A DNA stretch of 24,000 nt. Source: Candidatus Kaiserbacteria bacterium RIFCSPHIGHO2_01_FULL_53_29 (GTDB taxonomy: Bacteria; Patescibacteriota; Minisyncoccia; Phycocordibacterales; UBA2100). Within the stretch, counting starts at the first letter, position 1, and each line of letters begins with the position of its first letter. Below the pieces are notes generated by a model that saw nothing but the letters and a program-made list of their open reading frames with translations, searched no databases and was not told the origin of the DNA. This document shows positions 5,053 to 22,746 of the stretch, piece after piece. The stretch covers positions 4,595 to 28,594 of the forward strand of contig MFKT01000018.1 in assembly GCA_001781125.1 (NCBI GenBank), written 5' to 3'. A program made the translations under genes and the position numbers.

Positions 5053-5784
5053 ATGGAGCTGAAAACGGTCGGCATCATAGGATACGGCGCTTTCGGCGCG
5101 CTCGCCCATACCCTCATCAAACGTTTCGCGCCATCGGTTACTGTACGCGTACACTCGGAACATCATCCGTCTGATGGCAAACAGTTTTTCTCACTTGAGG
5201 AAACTGCGCAAAGCGACGCGGTTGTGTTTGCCGTTCCGATACATGCGTATGAAGAAGCATTGCGTGAGATAGTGCCGCTGATGCGGCAAGATTCCGTCAT
5301 CGTCGACGTTGCGACCGTAAAGGTTCACACCGTGCAGATGCTGAAGCAGTATGCGCGGGGCAGGCGCTACATCGCGACGCACCCGGTCTGGGGCCCCGAG
5401 AGCTACGAGAAGTGCGCAGGCGATATCCGCGGGTTCCGTATCGTTATGACAGATGGCACACTGAGCATCGAGGAGTACAACGCGCTCACAGCATTTTTGC
5501 GCGGACTCGGATTCGATGTCGTCGAAATGTCAGCCGAGAGCCACGATAAGTACATTGCTGAAACCCTATTTCTTACCCACTTCATCGCGCAAATCTTTGC
5601 GCGAGCCGGCATTAAGCGCACAAAAGTGGATACGGTCTCGTTTGCCAGTCTCATGAATGCCATAGAAGGTGTACAACACGATCAGGAACTTTTCAAAGAC
5701 GTGTATAAGTATAATCCGTACTGTAAGGAAGTTTTGAAGCGCTTCGGAATTGGGGAATCTGAAGTGCAAAAACTTCTGCTATGA
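5053..5784 (+). CDS. tyrA: Prephenate (or arogenate) dehydrogenase
   Basis: N-terminal dinucleotide fold VGIIGYGAFG, then VDVATVK and ATHPVWGPE (HPMFGP-like), typical of the TyrA family. There is a 4-nt overlap with the downstream dehydratase gene. Confidence 0.8.
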   Translation: MELKTVGIIGYGAFGALAHTLIKRFAPSVTVRVHSEHHPSDGKQFFSLEETAQSDAVVFAVPIHAYEEALREIVPLMRQDSVIVDVATVKVHTVQMLKQYARGRRYIATHPVWGPESYEKCAGDIRGFRIVMTDGTLSIEEYNALTAFLRGLGFDVVEMSAESHDKYIAETLFLTHFIAQIFARAGIKRTKVDTVSFASLMNAIEGVQHDQELFKDVYKYNPYCKEVLKRFGIGESEVQKLLL

Positions 5785-6338
5785 GAATCGGTATTTCAGG
5801 AGCCAAGGGTAGCTTCTCGGAAGAGGCTGCGCGAAAATACGCAAGCAAGAATGGGCTTGAAGGATATACGTTGGACTATCTCATTTCGGTCGAGAACGTG
5901 TTGACTGCCCTCGAGAAGGGGACGATCGACCTCGGGATCTTTCCGATAGAGAATCTGACCGGCGGCGCAGTTGCAGAAACAGTCGTGGCAATGCAAAAGC
6001 ACAAATTTCAGAAAAAAAATACGTTCACCATCGATATACGTCAGAACCTTCTTGCCCTCAAAACGACGAAGCGGGAGGAAATTATTACGATCACTTCGCA
6101 TGAGCAAGCGCTGAAGCAATGCGGTGCCTATCTGAAGGCGAAATGGCCAAACGCAAAACTTCAGGAATACGAGGATACTGCTAAGGCTGCAGAAGATCTC
6201 GCGGCAGGGAAGTTGCCGCCATCGACCGCCGTCATCGCCTCGCGTACCGCAGCTGAAGTTTACGGCCTCCAAATTCTTGAGGAATCGATACAGGATCAAA
6301 AAGAAAATCTCACGAGCTTTATTGCTGCGACAAAGTAG
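5781..6338 (+). CDS. pheA: Prephenate dehydratase, catalytic (PDT) domain only; no C-terminal ACT regulatory domain
   Basis: ISGAKGSFSEEAA, GIFPIENLTGGAV, TSHEQALKQCGAYL and ENLTSFI match the PDT domain. The ORF stops at 185 aa, where canonical PheA proteins continue with an ~80-aa ACT domain. Confidence 0.8.
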   Translation: MRIGISGAKGSFSEEAARKYASKNGLEGYTLDYLISVENVLTALEKGTIDLGIFPIENLTGGAVAETVVAMQKHKFQKKNTFTIDIRQNLLALKTTKREEIITITSHEQALKQCGAYLKAKWPNAKLQEYEDTAKAAEDLAAGKLPPSTAVIASRTAAEVYGLQILEESIQDQKENLTSFIAATK

Positions 6339-6341
6339 TCT

Positions 6342-6683
6342 TTATTTTTTCTCGAGAGTCTCGGAGTGATCGAGAATTACTTCAAAGATTTTTCGCGCCG
6401 CTTCTTCGGATATACCCAGATCTTTGGCGACTGCGATTCTTGAACTCATCACCTCATTTCTTCGTTTCTCGTCACGCACTTCAAGGCCTTTTTCTTGCTT
6501 AAGTTTTCCGATCTCAACGACGGATTTAAGGCGCTCTGCAAGCGCCAGAAGAAGTTCTTTATCTGCCGCATCGATCTCGGCGCGCAATCTCTCCAGCTCG
6601 CTTGACCCCGTTAGAGAACTACCTTTCGGGGGTGTGGTTGAGGAATCATCATTCTCTAACGGGGTTGACATAGAGCCCATCAT
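6342..6683 (-). CDS. Monofunctional chorismate mutase (AroQ-class, all-helical) with a Ser/Thr-rich N-terminal extension
   Basis: ELERLRAEIDAADKELLLALAERLKSVVEIGKLKQEKGLEVRDEKRRNEV matches the helix-1/helix-2 signature (R...D..ll.Ll.eR........K....l...d..Re) of AroQ chorismate mutases. It is convergent with pheA, with 3 nt between the stop codons. Confidence 0.8.
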   Translation of the reverse strand: MMGSMSTPLENDDSSTTPPKGSSLTGSSELERLRAEIDAADKELLLALAERLKSVVEIGKLKQEKGLEVRDEKRRNEVMSSRIAVAKDLGISEEAARKIFEVILDHSETLEKK

Positions 6684-6693
6684 ACACTACAAT
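6665..6693 (+). promoter_or_regulatory. Sigma70-type promoter TTGACA-17 nt-TACAAT driving the trp T-box leader
   Basis: TTGACA at 6665-6670, an exact 17-nt spacer, then TACAAT at 6688-6693. It lies inside the first codons of the divergent chorismate mutase gene. Confidence 0.65.
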
Positions 6694-6699
6694 ACCCCT

Positions 6700-6901
6700 T
6701 AGTTAAAGCCTTTGATTCGGGGGATGGGCCCGAATCGTCTATGGACAAGGCGATCTCTGCATGAGTGGAGATCCGGATTCCTCCGTAAAAAGGATAACTG
6801 ATATCTTACGAGAGCCAGTGAGTTATAAATTAAGGTGGTATCGCGGAAACCCGCCCTTATTGCACAAGGTATGATTGTGCAGTGAGGGCGGCTTTCATTT
6901 T
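6700..6901 (+). promoter_or_regulatory. T-box riboswitch leader, candidate specifier UGG (tRNA-Trp)
   Basis: T-box core AAGGUGGUAUCGCGG lies at 6832-6846. The antiterminator is AAGG/CCUU plus the 7-nt bulge UGGUAUC plus GCGG/CCGC. A competing terminator lies at 6851-6901. A Stem I-like helix spans 6708-6751, with UGG-A at 6742-6745 in its 3' internal loop. Stem II spans 6752-6773, an F-box-like CCGUAA lies at 6783-6788, and Stem III spans 6795-6826. Confidence 0.85.
6851..6901 (+). terminator. Intrinsic terminator of the trp T-box leader
   Basis: CCGCCCU (6851-6857) pairs with AGGGCGG (6885-6891). The inner helix is UGCACAA (6861-6867) / UUGUGCA (6875-6881). The tail is CUUUCAUUUU. Confidence 0.8.
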
Positions 6902-6952
6902 GCGATGAGCAAAATGATGTCGCGACGAGCACGATGCGACATAAACTAATCT

Positions 6953-9902: not shown

Positions 9903-11722
9903 AAGTCCTAAAAGTCATTCCCATTAAAAAACCTCTTGACGCCGAAGTAGCCATTCCCGGTTCTAAAAGTTACACCAACAGAGCGCTCCTCATGGCCGCA
10001 CTTTCGGGAAATACAGTGCGCATCAAAAATCCACTCATAAGTGAAGACACTGAGGCGATGATCGGCTGCCTGCGCGAGCTCGGTATTGCCTGTACGCTCG
10101 AAGACGGGCTCGTTACCGTTGCGGGCGGCATCGATTTGGTCAGTGACCGCGAATACAATCTCGATGCGAATCTCTCTGGGACCACGATCAGATTTATCTC
10201 GGCACTCTCGGCTCTAGTTCCCGGGACAAAGACCATTCATGGTAAGCCTCGTCTCAATGAGCGCCCGATCTACGATCTTGTAGATGCATTGCGGCAGCTC
10301 GGAGCCTCGATCGAGTACCTTGACCGGGAAGGCTACCCGCCTATTCGTATCTCGTCTTCGGAGCTTTCTGCGGGAGTAGTCAAAATGAAAGGAGAAGTAA
10401 GTAGTCAATTCCTGTCGGCACTTCTTATGGTGGCGCCCCGCATCGGCGACGTTGAAATACATATTGAGGGTGAACAGATATCAAAACCCTATGTAGACAT
10501 GACCATCGACGCTATGAAGCAATGTGGTGTTACCGTTGTCAACGATCAGTATGCGAAATATCGAATTACGGCAGGAGCAAAATACAAAATGACCGAGTAC
10601 GTGGTAGAGGGTGATGTTTCAAGCGCGTCCTACTTTGCAGCTATCGCGGCTTTGACCGGATCGCGTATTACGCTCAAGAATATGAATCCGCAGTCAGTAC
10701 AGGCGGATATGGGATTTCTTACCATCCTCGCCGGTATGGGGAACGAGATCACGAATGGGGAGAATGAGATAACGATACAGGGCCGTGGCGTAAGGGCGGT
10801 TGATGTCGACATGCGGGGTTGTCCCGATCAGGTACAGACGCTCGCCGTTCTCTCCGCATTCGTGTCGGGCATTACGTCGATCTCCGGCGTGCGTTCGCTA
10901 CGAGTAAAAGAGACGGAACGTGTCGCGGCGCTTGAGCGGGAACTTGCGAAGATGGGCGTACAGGCAGAATCGACCCCCGACACGCTCACCATCCATGGGC
11001 GTGCGCCGAGGCCCGCGGTGATCGACACCTACTGGGATCATCGGATGGCGATGGCGTTTACGGTTGCGGGGACGAAACTGGAGGGCATGGAGATCAGGAA
11101 TCCGGACGTCGTCGGGAAGACGTTCCCCGACTTTTGGGAGAAACTCAATTCGATCGGCATCAAGACGGAAATTTCCGAGCGGGAACCAAATATTGTGCTA
11201 ATAGGGATGCGCGGAAGCGGGAAGACAACGATCGCAAAAATGCTTTCCACCCGTCTGCAGCGCACCAGCATCGAGATAGACGACGAAGTCGTAAAGAAAA
11301 CAGGAATGAGCATCGCCGATATCTTTGCGCATCACGGAGCGGAATATTTCAGGAACAAGGAGTCCGAAGTAGTGGATGAAATGCTGGCAAAAGAGAATAC
11401 CATCATCTCTACCGGAGGCGGGACCATATTGCGACCCCACAACATCGAACAGCTCAAATACAACGCCATCTGTTTCTGGCTGCGGGCTCCCGTCGAAGCC
11501 CTGGTAGAGAGAATGGAGAGTGATCCCTCATCGTCGCAGCAGCGGCCCACTCTCACGGACAAGGAGACACCCGAGGAAGAAACTGCGGAAGTATTGCGAC
11601 AGCGGGAGGCGTTGTATCAAAAAGCCGCGGATGAGGTCGTGGATACCCAGAATAAGAACCCGGGGGGGATCGTCGAAGAGGTATTACTCAAATTGAAAGC
11701 GCGCGGAATTAACGTACAATAA
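9899..11722 (+). CDS. aroA-aroK: Fusion protein: EPSP synthase (residues ~1-425) plus shikimate kinase (residues ~431-607)
   Basis: The N-terminal part has [47 protein letters not shown] and DHRMAMAF (AroA). From nt ~11189 the sequence [14 protein letters not shown] (Walker A), STGGG and RPTL matches AroK. It is one uninterrupted 607-codon frame. Confidence 0.9.
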
Positions 11723-13677: not shown

Positions 13678-14511
13678 TTACTCCGTTTGGATTATTTCTC
13701 GAATTGTTTTTTCAACGGTCCCAATCCCCGAAGCCTTGATCGCATCCACAAATACACTGCCGGCGATGACGATGTCGGCTATTTTTGCGAGCGACTGGAC
13801 GTCCTCTTTTGATTTCACGCCGAAACCGACGGCAAGGGGAAGATTGAAGACGCGTTTGGCGAGGGTGGCAAAGTCTGCGAGATCTTTGGCAAATTTGCTG
13901 GTGGCACCCGTGATACCTTGTCGCGAGGTGCAATAGACAAAGCCGAGCAAGTCTTTTCCTCCAGAGGAGGATCCGCCTCCGGCGGAGGCGAGTTGTTTCA
14001 GTCGCTCTTCCGGTACTCCCGGCGAGACGACGGGGATGAAACAAATATTGTTTTCTTTACACGCAGCGATGAGCGCCTGACCTTCTTCGGTATCAAATGG
14101 GCAATCGGGGACGATAAGCGCGCTCGCTCCAGCATCAGCGATTGTTTTTACGAATTTCGGAATACCGTATCTGAAAACCGGGTTGGTATAACTCATCACC
14201 GCAACGGGTTTTCCGAACGCGGCGACTTTTTTAAGGAGTTCGAGCGATTTGGCGACCGTCGCACCTGCTTTTAGGGCGTCTTCGCTTGCAACAGCAATTG
14301 TCGGGCCGTCGGCCATGGGGTCCGAGAAGGGGATCTGCAGTTCGATAATATCCGCGCCGCCTTTCACCAGTGCCTGCGCAACTTGTTCAGACTCACTGTC
14401 GCTTCGATATCCAGCGATCATGTGTGCCATAAAAAAGGGCTTGCCACTTTTTACCCTGAGCAAAGTTGAAGGGTCTCCAAGCAGTGTCTGCAACTTATTC
14501 ATACCGGCCAT
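13678..14511 (-). CDS. trpA: Tryptophan synthase alpha chain carrying an 11-residue Gly/Ser insertion
   Basis: ELQIPFSDPMADGPTI, MSYTNP, GFVYCTSRQGITG and GFGVKSKED are TrpA motifs. I chose start ATG 14511 (MAGMNKL...), which overlaps the end of trpB; ATG 14502 is an alternative. The longer ORF extending to 14562 is probably upstream read-through. Confidence 0.9.
   Translation of the reverse strand: MAGMNKLQTLLGDPSTLLRVKSGKPFFMAHMIAGYRSDSESEQVAQALVKGGADIIELQIPFSDPMADGPTIAVASEDALKAGATVAKSLELLKKVAAFGKPVAVMSYTNPVFRYGIPKFVKTIADAGASALIVPDCPFDTEEGQALIAACKENNICFIPVVSPGVPEERLKQLASAGGGSSSGGKDLLGFVYCTSRQGITGATSKFAKDLADFATLAKRVFNLPLAVGFGVKSKEDVQSLAKIADIVIAGSVFVDAIKASGIGTVEKTIREIIQTE
13953..13987. repeat. 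Copy 1 of an exact 35-bp repeat (in frame within trpA, encodes SAGGGSSSGGK)
   Basis: cttttcctccagaggaggatccgcctccggcggag is identical to 20472-20506. Both copies have the same orientation and sit in the same reading frame relative to their host genes. Confidence 0.95.
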
Positions 14512-15706
14512 ACTCGTCTTTGAGAAACTCTCGGAAACTTTCGTCCTTGAAAGCACGCGCAAAGTTGAAGAGATCTTTGTCGCCGCGTCCGGAAAGCGTC
14601 GCGACGATGATGGAATCTTTCGGCATTTTCGGAGCGATTTTTTGCACGTGCGCTAGTGCATGCGCACTTTCAAGTGCGGAAATGACGCCTTCGAGCTTTG
14701 CAAAAAAGTCGACCGCGGCGACAGCTTCATCATCAGTCGCGTACGTGAGCTCGACTCGCCCTTCGGCATGTAGATTGGCAAGTTCCGGCCCGATTCCCGG
14801 ATAATCAAGCCCAGCAGAGATCGAATGCGTAGGCGCTATCTGTCCGTCTTCTGTTTGCAGAAAGAGTGATTTATAACCTTGGAAAATGCCTTCCGCGCCG
14901 CTAAGCACACGTGAAGCGTGTTCACCAAGCTTTTTGCCCCGCCCTCCTGCCTCCACTCCGATGAGTTGAACACTTTTTTCATGTATAAAATCGTCGAAAC
15001 TTCCCATCGCATTAGAGCCGCCCCCGACACAGGCAACAACTACGTCCGGCGGTTTTCCTTCACGCTCTTGCAGCTGCGCACGTATCTCGCGCGAGATCAC
15101 CGACTGGAAATAACGGTTCATCGACGGATAGGGTTTTGGTCCGACGACACTGCCGATGACAAAGTATGCTTCGTCTAAGTTCTCCATCCAGAATTTGAGC
15201 GCCTCATTCACCGCGTCTTTGAGGGTTTTTGTCCCGTATTCTACTGGCACTACGGTTGCGCCGAGCCTCTCCATCAAGAAGACATTCGGACGCTGGCGCT
15301 CCATATCGATGCGGCCCATAAAGATCTTGCAGGAAAAACCGAGCTTCGCAGCCACCGTTGCGGTGGCAACACCGTGCTGTCCGGCACCGGTATCGGCGAT
15401 AAGCATTTTCTTACCGAGTCTTTTTGCGATGAGCGCCTGTCCGAGGCAGTGGGTGATCTTGTGCGCGCCCGTGTGGTTTGCGCCCTCGTTCTTGAGGTAG
15501 ATTTTCGCGCCCCCGAGCTCCTCGGTCGCGCGCGCGGCGAAGATAAGCGGCGTCGGGCGGCCCGAATAGTTCTTCAGTAAGTTCTCGAATTCGCTTTTGA
15601 ACGCAGTGTCTTTCTTAGCGTTCTCAAATTCAGCGTCGAGTTTCTGCAGTGTCTCCCAGAGCATTTCGGGTACGTACGCTCCCCCGTATGTATGTTTTTC
15701 ACTCAT
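14495..15706 (-). CDS. trpB: Tryptophan synthase beta chain
   Basis: HTGAHKITH (PLP lysine), GAGQHG, VGGGSNAMG and SISAGLDYPG; 403 aa. ATGA overlap with trpC. Confidence 0.95.
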   Translation of the reverse strand: MSEKHTYGGAYVPEMLWETLQKLDAEFENAKKDTAFKSEFENLLKNYSGRPTPLIFAARATEELGGAKIYLKNEGANHTGAHKITHCLGQALIAKRLGKKMLIADTGAGQHGVATATVAAKLGFSCKIFMGRIDMERQRPNVFLMERLGATVVPVEYGTKTLKDAVNEALKFWMENLDEAYFVIGSVVGPKPYPSMNRYFQSVISREIRAQLQEREGKPPDVVVACVGGGSNAMGSFDDFIHEKSVQLIGVEAGGRGKKLGEHASRVLSGAEGIFQGYKSLFLQTEDGQIAPTHSISAGLDYPGIGPELANLHAEGRVELTYATDDEAVAAVDFFAKLEGVISALESAHALAHVQKIAPKMPKDSIIVATLSGRGDKDLFNFARAFKDESFREFLKDEYGRYE

Positions 15707-21700: not shown

Positions 21701-21988
21701 CTAAAGACCCCCGATGTAGATGTTGGGACGAGGTTGTGCCGCGCTAGCGAATGCGGCATTAATCAGTTGCTCGGCTTGCGTCGCGGTCGTTCCTTCCGGA
21801 ACTTCCATGAGCCATGCGCACACGCCATTGGCGAGACCAAGGCGTGTTTCAGGCCCGTTGTTGACGTAGCGGACCAACGGCATGCCGATCTTCGCGTCCG
21901 CGAAGACGTTCTTAAGCGAATCACGAAGAGGTCCTTGATGATCGGGCGTTATTCCGCATACCCGAACTTCGAAGTCGTCGCTTTTCAT
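21701..21988 (-). CDS. Hypothetical 95-aa protein under T-box control (MKSDDFEVRVCGITPDHQGPL...NIYIGGL)
   Basis: A strong RBS, AGGAGAAGG, ends 2 nt before ATG 21988. The rest of the listed 170-aa ORF runs through the T-box terminator, so I discard it. No family was recognised with confidence. Confidence 0.6.
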   Translation of the reverse strand: MKSDDFEVRVCGITPDHQGPLRDSLKNVFADAKIGMPLVRYVNNGPETRLGLANGVCAWLMEVPEGTTATQAEQLINAAFASAAQPRPNIYIGGL

Positions 21989-22069: not shown

Positions 22070-22301
22070 TACGCAAATACAAAAATCCGCCCTTACAACA
22101 CGAATACACTTCGTGTAGTAAGGGCGGATTTCTTCCGCGGTGCCACCTTTTTTCTTCTTACTCCGACTATACGTCGGAGTTACCTCTATTACGGGAGAAC
22201 CCCGAGATACCACTTGCGCAGTACCTTACCTGCCGCGTCAGACGCGGACAATTCGGCCCGAACCCCGGCCAGTGCCGGGAACCGAATCTAAGGCTTTTAC
22301 T
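22070..22301 (-). promoter_or_regulatory. Second T-box riboswitch leader (amino-acid specificity not assignable by eye)
   Basis: On the minus-strand RNA, the T-box core AAGGUGGCACCGCGG lies at 22149..22135. The antiterminator is AAGG/CCUU plus the 7-nt bulge UGGCACC plus GCGG/CCGC. The competing terminator, AAAUCCGCCCUUAC...GUAAGGGCGGAUUU followed by UUUUUGUAUUUG, spans 22131..22071. Upstream lie the Stem III hairpin ACUCCGAC-GUAUA-GUCGGAGU, an F-box-like CCGUAA, and a 5' segment AAAGCCUUAGAUUCGG homologous to the trp T-box. Confidence 0.8.
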
Positions 22302-22307
22302 GTCTTT

Positions 22308-22336
22308 ACTGTAAACGATGGCGCTTAAGGTGTCAA
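22308..22336 (-). promoter_or_regulatory. Sigma70-type promoter TTGACA-17 nt-TACAGT for the second T-box
   Basis: On the minus strand, TTGACA lies at 22336..22331 and TACAGT at 22313..22308, with an exact 17-nt spacer. Confidence 0.6.
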
Positions 22337-22365
22337 ACGTGATAAATAATGTAGTATTAGCAATT

Positions 22366-22746
22366 ATGAAACCAGTACATACAGACAAGGCTCCACAGGC
22401 AATAGGGCCGTATTCGCAGGCGGTCGTCGTGGGCGATCTCGTCTTTTGTTCGGGGCAGATCGGGCTTGAGCCTGCAAGCGGGGAAATGGTCGCCGGTGGC
22501 GTGAAAGAGCAGACTGTCCGTGTACTCAAAAATCTCGCCGAGGTTCTTGGGGCTGCGGGGGTCAGTCTTTCCGATGTCGTGAGCGTCAATGTCTATTTGA
22601 AATCCATGAATGATTTTAAAGATATGAACGAGATCTACGCAGCACAATTCGGCGAGCACAAACCCGCGCGTGCCACTGTTGGCGTGTCGGAATTACCGAA
22701 AGGCGCTCTCGTTGAGATCTCGTGCGTCGCTTCTCTTTCTAAGTAG
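22366..22746 (+). CDS. ridA: RidA/YjgF/TdcF-family reactive enamine-imine deaminase
   Basis: MKPVHTDKAPQAIGPYSQAVVVGDLVFCSGQIGL...PARATVGVSELPKGALVEI is collinear with RidA. The 16 upstream codons of the listed ORF overlap the divergent T-box promoter and I drop them. Confidence 0.9.
   Translation: MKPVHTDKAPQAIGPYSQAVVVGDLVFCSGQIGLEPASGEMVAGGVKEQTVRVLKNLAEVLGAAGVSLSDVVSVNVYLKSMNDFKDMNEIYAAQFGEHKPARATVGVSELPKGALVEISCVASLSK

Follow-up and report, generated by a model that had tools for sequence, protein, structure and literature searches.

A 24,000-nucleotide (nt) stretch of the genome of Candidatus Kaiserbacteria bacterium RIFCSPHIGHO2_01_FULL_53_29 (contig MFKT01000018.1, positions 4,595 to 28,594; hereafter the window), an uncultured, ultrasmall member of the Patescibacteria or Candidate Phyla Radiation (CPR), carries a small transcription unit inside a supercluster of aro and trp genes. 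The unit lies on the minus strand, consists of a promoter, a T-box leader, an open reading frame (ORF) of 95 amino acids (aa) with a good ribosome-binding site (RBS) and a terminator, and stands directly upstream of the separately controlled aroQ-aroE-aroG-aroB operon. Our comparisons indicate that the leader is a real but non-canonical T-box, copied from the Trp T-box of trpE in the same genome and most likely reading a serine codon, and that its cargo is a real gene of a new, very narrow protein family. The unit is built as follows.

22336-22308, minus strand: promoter of the T-box transcript (TTGACA at 22336-22331, a 17-nt spacer and TACAGT at 22313-22308; 10 of 12 matches in a consensus scan)
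22303-22075, minus strand: T-box leader of ~230 nt, described from an Rfam match, element coordinates, energies and covariation across four leaders
22297-22249, minus strand: shortened Stem I
22261-22259, minus strand: UCG (Ser), the most likely specifier, in the Stem I 3' bulge GUUCGGG (22263-22257)
22225-22206, minus strand: Stem II
22204-22192, minus strand: Stem IIA, with its pseudoknot partner at 22189-22183
22179-22161, minus strand: Stem III
22149-22135, minus strand: T-box sequence AAGGUGGCACCGCGG, in a segment starting at about 22153
22145-22142, minus strand: UGGC in the bulge of the T-box, complementary to 5'-GCCA-3' at the 3' end of the tRNA
22149-22120, minus strand: antiterminator (30 nt, -7.3 kcal/mol)
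22131-22075, minus strand: T-box terminator (-33.6 kcal/mol), ending in U5
22054-22027, minus strand: hairpin GCAGGAGGAG...CUCUUUCUGU of the 5' untranslated region (5' UTR), between the T-box terminator and the RBS
22000-21991, minus strand: RBS CAGGAGAAGG, 3 nt upstream of the ATG
21988-21701, minus strand: gene of the orphan 95-aa protein, stop included (ATG at 21988, TAG at 21703-21701; from the ORF list)
21671-21639, minus strand: intrinsic terminator of the T-box/small-gene transcript (10-bp stem with 8 GC pairs, tail CUUUCAUUUG)

The 95-aa ORF is the sole gene between the T-box and the next terminator, because that terminator (21671-21639) is followed by a new promoter and a leader peptide. 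The original prediction, that the ORF with its strong RBS is the only cargo of a T-box, thus describes the unit correctly. In the sister lineage, represented by locus L001, the stem of this terminator is preserved by compensatory changes and its tail is identical. Compensatory changes also mark the 5' UTR hairpin, which is retained in the window, in L001 (~9935-9962) and in a third lineage, L084 (~255-285). The 5' arm of this hairpin (CAGGAGGAG) mimics the true RBS (CAGGAGAAG), which the 3' arm could alternatively mask. An upstream-extended version of the ORF (170 aa, GTG at 22213) is not credible, as it runs through the T-box. On the other strand, ridA could begin 16 codons (MALKVSNVINNVVLAI; window 22318-22366, plus strand) 5' of the start used in relatives; whichever start applies, it is no more than ~30 nt away from the -35 box of the T-box promoter, which points the other way, and the control regions of ridA and of the T-box unit therefore overlap.

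Comparison with its relatives indicates that the ORF is a real gene under purifying selection. A word-indexed search returned, apart from the query itself, one full-length relative (P0002, 76% identity), encoded at the same place in L001 with ridA-ilvA on one side and aroQ-aroE-aroG-aroB and trp genes on the other. Over their 288 nt the two genes differ at 16 first, 13 second and 25 third codon positions, without indels and with start and stop at the same positions; the ratio of nonsynonymous to synonymous substitution rates (dN/dS) is 0.31, and the start, stop and RBS are conserved. The identity of the two proteins falls within the 67-91% range of the neighbouring enzymes, and 18-23 contigs, drawn from several samples, encode the identical protein. 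Recent horizontal transfer was considered and rejected, as both the GC content of the gene and that of its third codon positions (GC3; 0.604 vs 0.607 for the genome) match the genome.

The family to which the gene belongs is known from three lineages only. When 1.84 billion representative proteins were searched exhaustively with HMMER, the only addition was P0005 (70 aa), encoded on a 550-bp contig (L084) with G-rich junk at its 3' end. P0005 shares 46% identity with the query over its first 50 residues, and a search started from P0005 found only P0005 itself. The other HMMER matches were giant repeat proteins, which we discarded as motif artefacts that have only a short helix-capping motif in common with the query: P0003, for example, has ~12 copies of SGIEPDWQGKLRSVVEDRY, resembling only residues 8-29 of the small protein. 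No relative was found in 185,579 species genomes, the JGI metagenomes yielded only the sister lineage, and there was no family match in Pfam (even at E<=10), NCBIfam, PHROGs, PADLOC or a PDB sequence search. The small protein therefore defines a new, very narrow family, as could be expected from the earlier remark that the ORF belonged to no recognisable one. On the L084 contig (1-317) the 5' UTR hairpin is still present, as is a remnant of the terminator 3' half (AAGCGGAUUUCUG), with no T-box sequence upstream.

An Rfam scan at gathering thresholds gave no match anywhere in the window. In a permissive, local search the T-box model (RF00230) matched the leader end to end at 22299-22117 (29.7 bits, E=1.8e-4), and the L001 leader scored 42.4 bits; both stay under the curated cut-off of 93 bits, and the low score is explained by Stem I, which has 54 nt where the model expects 86. 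The antiterminator reads AAGG-UGGCACC-GCGGA-AGAAA-UCCGC-CCUU, with the 7-nt UGGCACC bulge in its helix as in the T-box consensus (UGGNACC), and it is mutually exclusive with the terminator: UCCGCCCUU, the 3' half of the antiterminator, is common to both. Five pairs of the terminator helix show compensatory changes, and the leader as a whole folds with a z-score of -7.8 relative to shuffled sequences. When the two small-gene leaders were aligned with two trpE leaders, 96.4% of the cells were paired, against 40-49% in slid controls, and 16 pairs were changed on both sides, against 0-3 in the controls; none of 500 shuffles reached the observed value, in a test that comprises four sequences and a structure itself derived from those four. 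The window and L001 leaders are only 70% identical, yet all T-box helices and the UCG bulge are conserved.

The departure from the canonical form lies in Stem I. It has neither the length nor the distal double T-loop platform with which typical transcriptional T-boxes touch the tRNA elbow; above the bulge there is only a hairpin of 6-7 bp with a 4-nt loop, and transcriptional T-boxes are reported generally to need a long Stem I (PMC7583486). The base of the window Stem I carries an extra hairpin (CCGCGUCUGACGCGG; 22247-22233, minus strand) where L001 has a simple K-turn-like UGA/GGC closure, and both trpE leaders have a smaller hairpin at the same position. Given the T-box sequence, the competing terminator and antiterminator and the covariation-supported helices, the sequence evidence indicates that the leader is a real but non-canonical, transcription-attenuating T-box with a shortened Stem I, and the original recognition of a T-box here was sound.

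A permissive scan of the whole window revealed a second T-box-like leader (6703-6861, plus strand; 44 bits), which directly precedes trpE-trpG-trpD-aroA/K-aroC.

6665-6905, plus strand: Trp T-box before trpE (promoter at 6665-6693; 7-nt apical loop with UGG at 6725-6727 and a G after it; UGGU bulge; terminator)

Its promoter, TTGACA-17-TACAAT, has the same layout as that of the small-gene unit, as is also the case in L001 and in L091, a locus on the same contig as L001. The promoter, Stem I base, Stem II, IIA/B region, T-box sequence and terminator of the two window leaders can all be aligned. Stem I of the window trpE leader is ultrashort (UUCGGG-GGAUGGG-CCCGAA), its apical loop presenting UGG and then G. 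The trpE leader of the sister lineage (L091, 2193-2455; 32.8 bits with the Rfam T-box model) has the architecture of the small-gene leaders, that is, a lower helix, UU, an inserted hairpin and a 7-nt 3' segment.

Stem I, L091 trpE: UUCGG UU CCCGCG-UCCUA-CGCGGG GU-UGG-GA CCGGA
Stem I, window small gene: UUCGG UU CCCGGC-ACUG-GCCGGG GU-UCG-GG CCGAA
Stem I, L001 small gene: as in the window apart from compensatory changes in the two helices

A third CPR lineage (L093, ~2372-2612) also has a short-Stem-I T-box before trpE, with UGG and then A in the apical loop, which the Rfam T-box model did not detect at E<0.1. The trpE T-boxes of three CPR lineages thus combine an ultrashort or intermediate Stem I, lacking the elbow platform, with strong intrinsic terminators, and all of them lie far under the Rfam cut-off. 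These comparisons show that the small-gene leader is paralogous to the trpE T-box, and that it arose by duplication of the Trp T-box of the genome's own trpE before the two lineages known to have it split. That T-boxes evolve by being duplicated and then switching their specificity is on record (Wels et al., 2008; PMC2494555).

Such a switch is what the bulge of Stem I suggests. The UCG of the small-gene leader aligns column for column with the UGG (Trp) of the window and L091 trpE leaders, and the consensus bulge (RNAalifold, columns 43-47) reads as follows.

Small gene, window and L001: UUCGG
trpE, L091: UUGGG
trpE, window: AUGGG

The UCG bulge is identical in the window and L001, and the G that follows UCG is homologous to the G after UGG in the trpE paralogues, so that the putative specifier is followed by a purine. 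The T-box database TBDB takes as specifier the nucleotides 2-4 of the bulge, counted from its 3' end (PMC7778990). Applied in this '+0' frame, the rule returns UGG for both of these trpE leaders and UCG for both small-gene leaders. The anti-TRAP analogy originally drawn, with a T-box sensing tRNA-Trp, accordingly finds no support, since UCG stands where both paralogous trpE T-boxes have UGG.

The other contact with the tRNA agrees with a serine reading. The last base of the T-box bulge is the partner of the tRNA discriminator, and a U faces G73 in 46% of Trp T-boxes (PMC7778990). Both small-gene leaders and L091 trpE have UGGC in this bulge, and window trpE has UGGU. As UGGC pairs with 5'-GCCA-3', a G73 discriminator is implied. 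By the established identity rules of tRNAs, both tRNA-Ser and tRNA-Trp carry G73, and tRNA-Phe carries A73; the bulge therefore fits tRNA-Ser and not tRNA-Phe. UCG is also the commonest Ser codon of the window genes (104 of 410). The window holds no tRNA genes; the related loci yielded a tRNA-Trp, ending in GCCA (G73), and no tRNA-Ser. Taken together, the alignment and the pairing make tRNA-Ser the probable effector, if by a modest degree of confidence. We regard tRNA-Phe (UUC in the -1 frame, with a mismatched discriminator) as improbable, tRNA-Trp (a UGG mostly inside the apical stem, with a pyrimidine after it) as improbable to much the same degree and tRNA-Arg (CGG in the +1 frame) as slightly more so; the rest of the probability goes to a leader that is non-functional or has another effector.

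As to the protein, AlphaFold2 models of the window protein (mean predicted local distance difference test score, pLDDT, 87.6; predicted template modelling score, pTM, 0.81; two-sequence alignment) and of the sister protein (pLDDT 81.7; three-sequence alignment) both have the order strand-helix-strand, strand-helix-strand, that is, (beta-alpha-beta)x2. In Foldseek searches of the PDB the top 36 matches of the first model and the top 50 of the second were members of the tautomerase superfamily or cages designed from such trimers, with probability ~1.0, E-values down to 1e-4 and template modelling (TM) scores of 0.5-0.64. They include cis-CaaD/Cg10062, MIF from many species, malonate semialdehyde decarboxylase (MSAD), fused 4-oxalocrotonate tautomerases (4-OT) and a "NonPro1" superfamily member. 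A library of viral structures gave no meaningful match, and hhalign against human MIF gave a probability of 0.5%, hence no sequence signal. We therefore describe the protein as predicted to be tautomerase/MIF-fold-like, which falls short of demonstrated superfamily membership. The catalytic Pro1 is absent (the N-termini are MKSDDFEV, MKAFDFEV and MQGDDVPI, and the first strand starts from residue 6), and the protein is for this reason probably not a classical tautomerase. The product is cytosolic and lineage-restricted.

The Foldseek check that had been proposed for this protein pointed to the tautomerase superfamily. The weak impression of an ACT-like domain was not borne out: no ACT-domain protein is among the best 50 Foldseek matches of either model, and no Pfam ACT match appears at E<=10. 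Nor did the absence of an ACT domain from the prephenate dehydratase (PDT) of this cluster, noted at the outset and seen again here (5781-6338; PDT-only, 185 aa), prove to go together with the small gene, for PDT-only pheA genes (185 aa) also occur in L019 and L020, relatives whose loci have no small-gene homologue. The superficial resemblance of the C-terminus to ubiquitin dissolves on comparison, as ...IGGL in the window corresponds to ...IGDL in the sister protein, so that Gly-Gly is not conserved, and the models do not predict a beta-grasp. There is no zinc-ribbon Cys motif in the protein, which contains just two Cys, one of them (C11) replaced by Ser in P0002.

The surroundings of the unit are those of a complete pathway. 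Every step is present from 3-deoxy-D-arabino-heptulosonate 7-phosphate (DAHP) synthase through prephenate dehydratase and dehydrogenase and Trp synthase, including a type II (CM_2) chorismate mutase at 6342-6683, and no gap is left for the small protein to fill; a role as the missing chorismate mutase was rejected on that ground. In the window (5053-6338, plus strand) prephenate dehydrogenase and the ACT-less prephenate dehydratase are separate, overlapping genes; in L091 (1-1125) the two are fused into one 438-aa protein. The nearest DAHP synthases (70-73% identity) belong to metagenome-assembled genomes of Candidatus Kaiserbacteria and other Parcubacteria. The flanks also hold users of serine, namely TrpB (14495-15706) and an IlvA-type dehydratase, encoded together with RidA by ridA-ilvA (22366 to the window end). 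Downstream, the aro operon has a promoter, leader peptide and attenuator of its own, as expected from the original description of the ORF as adjoining an attenuator-controlled aro operon.

21628-21466, minus strand: control region of aroQ-aroE-aroG-aroB (promoter, leader peptide, attenuator)
21628-21601, minus strand: aro operon promoter, TTGACA-16-TATTAT (11 of 12 matches)
21591-21517, minus strand: aro leader peptide MQTISSRFFGFFYGLSFESSSALL (24 codons, Phe/Tyr-rich)
about 21500-21466, minus strand: aro attenuator terminator, a hairpin followed by aroQ

This control region is conserved in L001. An aromatic-codon-rich leader peptide and a terminator precede aroQ in the window and in L001, L003, L004, L009, L014 and L015. 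The leader peptides of relatives mix all three aromatic amino acids (YFFFWFY, YFFWFFFY, AWFTFFFY, YFSFWF); those of the window, L001 and L015 (RFFGFFY, GFGFFFY) contain no Trp codon.

At least 14 Kaiserbacteria-like aroQ-aroE-aroG-aroB loci have neither the small gene nor the T-box. In L009 and L015 the gene order is ilvA-ridA, trpF, trpCBA, aroQEGB, which places the T-box and the small gene at a lineage-specific junction. At several intergenic sites the aromatic supercluster of the sister lineage contains inserted small ORFs with a domain of PaaX_M type (L001 8942-9502 and 1486-2073; L092 1201-1779), one of these sites being directly upstream of the sister small-gene T-box; their absence from the same spots in the window suggests a mobile or expanding gene family.

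The account that we favour, to which we give somewhat less than an even chance, is that of a monocistronic T-box operon in which a Trp T-box copy, retargeted to Ser, induces a tautomerase-fold-like binding protein. A duplicate of the trpE Trp T-box would have been placed before the 95-aa gene, and a change of one base in the specifier (UGG to UCG) with retention of the UGGC bulge would have left a leader reading a G73 tRNA that decodes UCG, most likely tRNA-Ser, as judged from homology and established T-box rules. When this tRNA is uncharged, its free 3' end would lend stability to the weak antiterminator in its competition with the strong terminator, and transcription would run on into the 95-aa gene. 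The product may then act by binding, either to a ligand of alpha-keto-acid type or to a neighbouring serine-consuming enzyme (TrpB, the IlvA-type dehydratase), and so adjust amino acid flux at low serine charging. The cargo of a T-box normally raises charging of the tRNA that is sensed; with serine-using neighbours, our best guess is hence a protein that restrains serine use or binds an alpha-keto-acid. We infer a protein that would be switched on by tRNA starvation and probably works by binding a ligand or an enzyme, and the main alternative for the protein is a Pro1-independent enzyme acting on arylpyruvates or enamines.

A number of points weigh against this account. Just three trpE leaders underlie the alignment from which the specifier was called, the codons UUC (Phe) and CGG (Arg) of the other frames and the UGG of the apical hairpin (22270-22268) are less probable candidates, and neither the window nor the related loci gave a tRNA-Ser gene. 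The leader scores far below the Rfam cut-off and has no long Stem I platform, so its function is not guaranteed, and the base of its Stem I carries the hairpin that L001 lacks. In the third lineage (L084) the gene seems to stand without a T-box, on a 550-bp contig with a garbled end; the short contig and its G-rich end mean that the T-box-less copy may be an assembly artefact. The predicted fold draws on shallow alignments of two or three sequences, and the five models vary in pLDDT from 87.6 to 55.7; the TM-scores are only moderate, and hhalign, Pfam and NCBIfam add no sequence-level support for a tautomerase fold. The binding role and its targets, finally, are inferred.

Other readings of the unit give the leader a different codon. 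It could sense tRNA-Trp through the UGG of the apical hairpin CACUGG (22272-22267), the protein being an anti-TRAP-like or ACT-like regulator of aromatic or tryptophan biosynthesis. In its favour, both lineages have this UGG in the apical hairpin of Stem I, the G73 of tRNA-Trp would match UGGC, and a Trp T-box is the ancestor of the leader. The gene also lies inside an aro/trp supercluster, and the aro leader peptides of the window and L001 contain no Trp codon, unlike those of several relatives, so that a Trp input might come from elsewhere. The UGG is, however, largely enclosed in a GC stem, for which a compensatory change from C-G to U-A gives support, the next base is a pyrimidine in place of the conserved purine, and the codon at the position homologous to the trpE specifier is UCG; with no ACT signal in sequence or fold, no zinc-ribbon Cys motif and one of its two Cys not conserved, the protein does not fit either, and we consider this reading quite improbable. 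A specifier UUC (Phe, -1) or CGG (Arg, +1) is also unlikely, if a little less so. In its Phe version this reading would make the protein a phenylpyruvate-binding or -converting tautomerase-type factor for the last Phe/Tyr steps, and the tautomerase superfamily, including MIF, does bind arylpyruvates (PDB 3gac is MIF with hydroxyphenylpyruvate). UUC is followed by a purine within the same bulge, the adjoining aro operon is under a Phe-rich leader peptide, CPR tRNA-Arg can have G73, and codons ending in C are typical T-box specifiers. Against these stand the mispair of UGGC with the A73 of tRNA-Phe (C vs A), a C that is kept in both lineages although the trpE copy shows that a change to U is possible, and the absence of Pro1; moreover, in these frames the trpE leaders would read UUG/AUG or GGG, which is senseless for trpE.

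The remaining explanations question the role of the cargo. The T-box might be an extra read-through input to aroQ-aroE-aroG-aroB, or a decaying duplicate with a lineage-specific passenger ORF that plays no part in amino acid metabolism. The rearrangement junction is lineage-specific (L009 and L015 have ridA beside trpF, no small gene and no T-box), the family occurs in only three lineages and the terminator tail CUUUCAUUUG is U-poor, all of which would suit such an origin. The ORF is nonetheless under purifying selection and as conserved as the neighbouring enzymes, the stem of the 3' terminator is maintained by compensatory changes and has a strong promoter behind it, and the T-box helices and UCG bulge have been conserved in leaders that are only 70% identical; we judge this explanation unlikely as well. 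That the ORF is not a gene, and that the transcript acts only as RNA, would account for the lack of a family match in any library, but is very improbable in view of the excess of third-position differences, the dN/dS of 0.31, 95 codons free of indels, the conserved start, stop and RBS, confident AlphaFold models from two or three sequences and the 46%-identical N-terminal half in L084.

Among known systems, the unit most resembles in its logic that of anti-TRAP. T-boxes nearly always control aminoacyl-tRNA synthetases, biosynthetic enzymes or transporters, and anti-TRAP, a 53-aa zinc-binding protein that blocks TRAP, is the textbook exception. It is encoded by rtpA (yczA) of Bacillus subtilis and induced by a tRNA-Trp T-box (PMC10327191; PMC2494555). 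In both cases a small protein of non-enzyme size, encoded beside aromatic or Trp genes, is placed under a T-box. The present host, however, is a CPR bacterium and not a Firmicute, there is no TRAP, the predicted fold differs, and the features by which membership was assessed are missing, the protein having no Cys-rich motif and the leader a specifier that is most likely UCG and not one for tRNA-Trp.

The leader is closer to the actinobacterial ileS T-boxes with an intermediate or ultrashort Stem I (Sherwood et al. 2015, as reviewed in PMC7583486). As in those, Stem I has no distal elbow platform, Stem II and a IIA/B-type pseudoknot are present, and the specifier stands in a side bulge (small gene, L091 trpE) or in the apical loop (window trpE, L093 trpE). 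Unlike the ileS T-boxes, which act on translation by sequestering the RBS, the CPR leaders end in strong intrinsic terminators, from which it follows that they would act on transcription; a short Stem I with transcriptional control is generally not found (PMC7583486). The placing of a T-box copy with a diverged specifier before a new gene parallels the cases of Wels et al. (2008; PMC2494555), with the difference that here donor and copy lie in the same 24-kb window, the switch involves a single base and both tRNAs have the same discriminator.

For the protein, the tautomerase superfamily (MIF, cis-CaaD/Cg10062, MSAD, fused 4-OT and the 'NonPro1' protein NJ7) provides the only consistent structural matches, alike in predicted topology and similar in size, and members without Pro1 have been described (PDB 9c4l). 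The small protein differs in that it has a 5-residue N-terminal extension instead of Pro1, is ~20 residues shorter than MIF and has no detectable sequence similarity to the superfamily, with TM-scores of only 0.5-0.64. The ubiquitin-like sulfur carriers of the ThiS-MoaD type have a beta-grasp fold and a C-terminal Gly-Gly, neither of which is found here.

In summary, the unit is new as a variant of T-box regulation that carries a new, narrow protein family, while the principle of T-box control is known. Our literature search found no paper that mentions a T-box together with Patescibacteria or CPR, which, being limited to the library searched, is not proof of absence. The cargo may be a T-box-induced regulatory protein in general terms. 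A more specific version, a second independent invention of the anti-TRAP type in which a tRNA-Ser T-box commands a Pro1-less tautomerase-fold brake or valve on TrpB or the IlvA-type dehydratase, in a CPR bacterium with transcriptional T-boxes lacking a long Stem I, is conceivable but rather unlikely. If the account that we favour is right, the unit would add a second small, non-enzyme-like T-box cargo, in Patescibacteria/CPR, and would be a natural example of a one-base change of T-box specificity with the donor copy still in the same locus. T-boxes of terminator type without a tRNA-elbow platform would also bear on the minimal needs of transcriptional T-boxes, and the function of the protein could show how makers of aromatic amino acids with reduced genomes balance serine and tryptophan.

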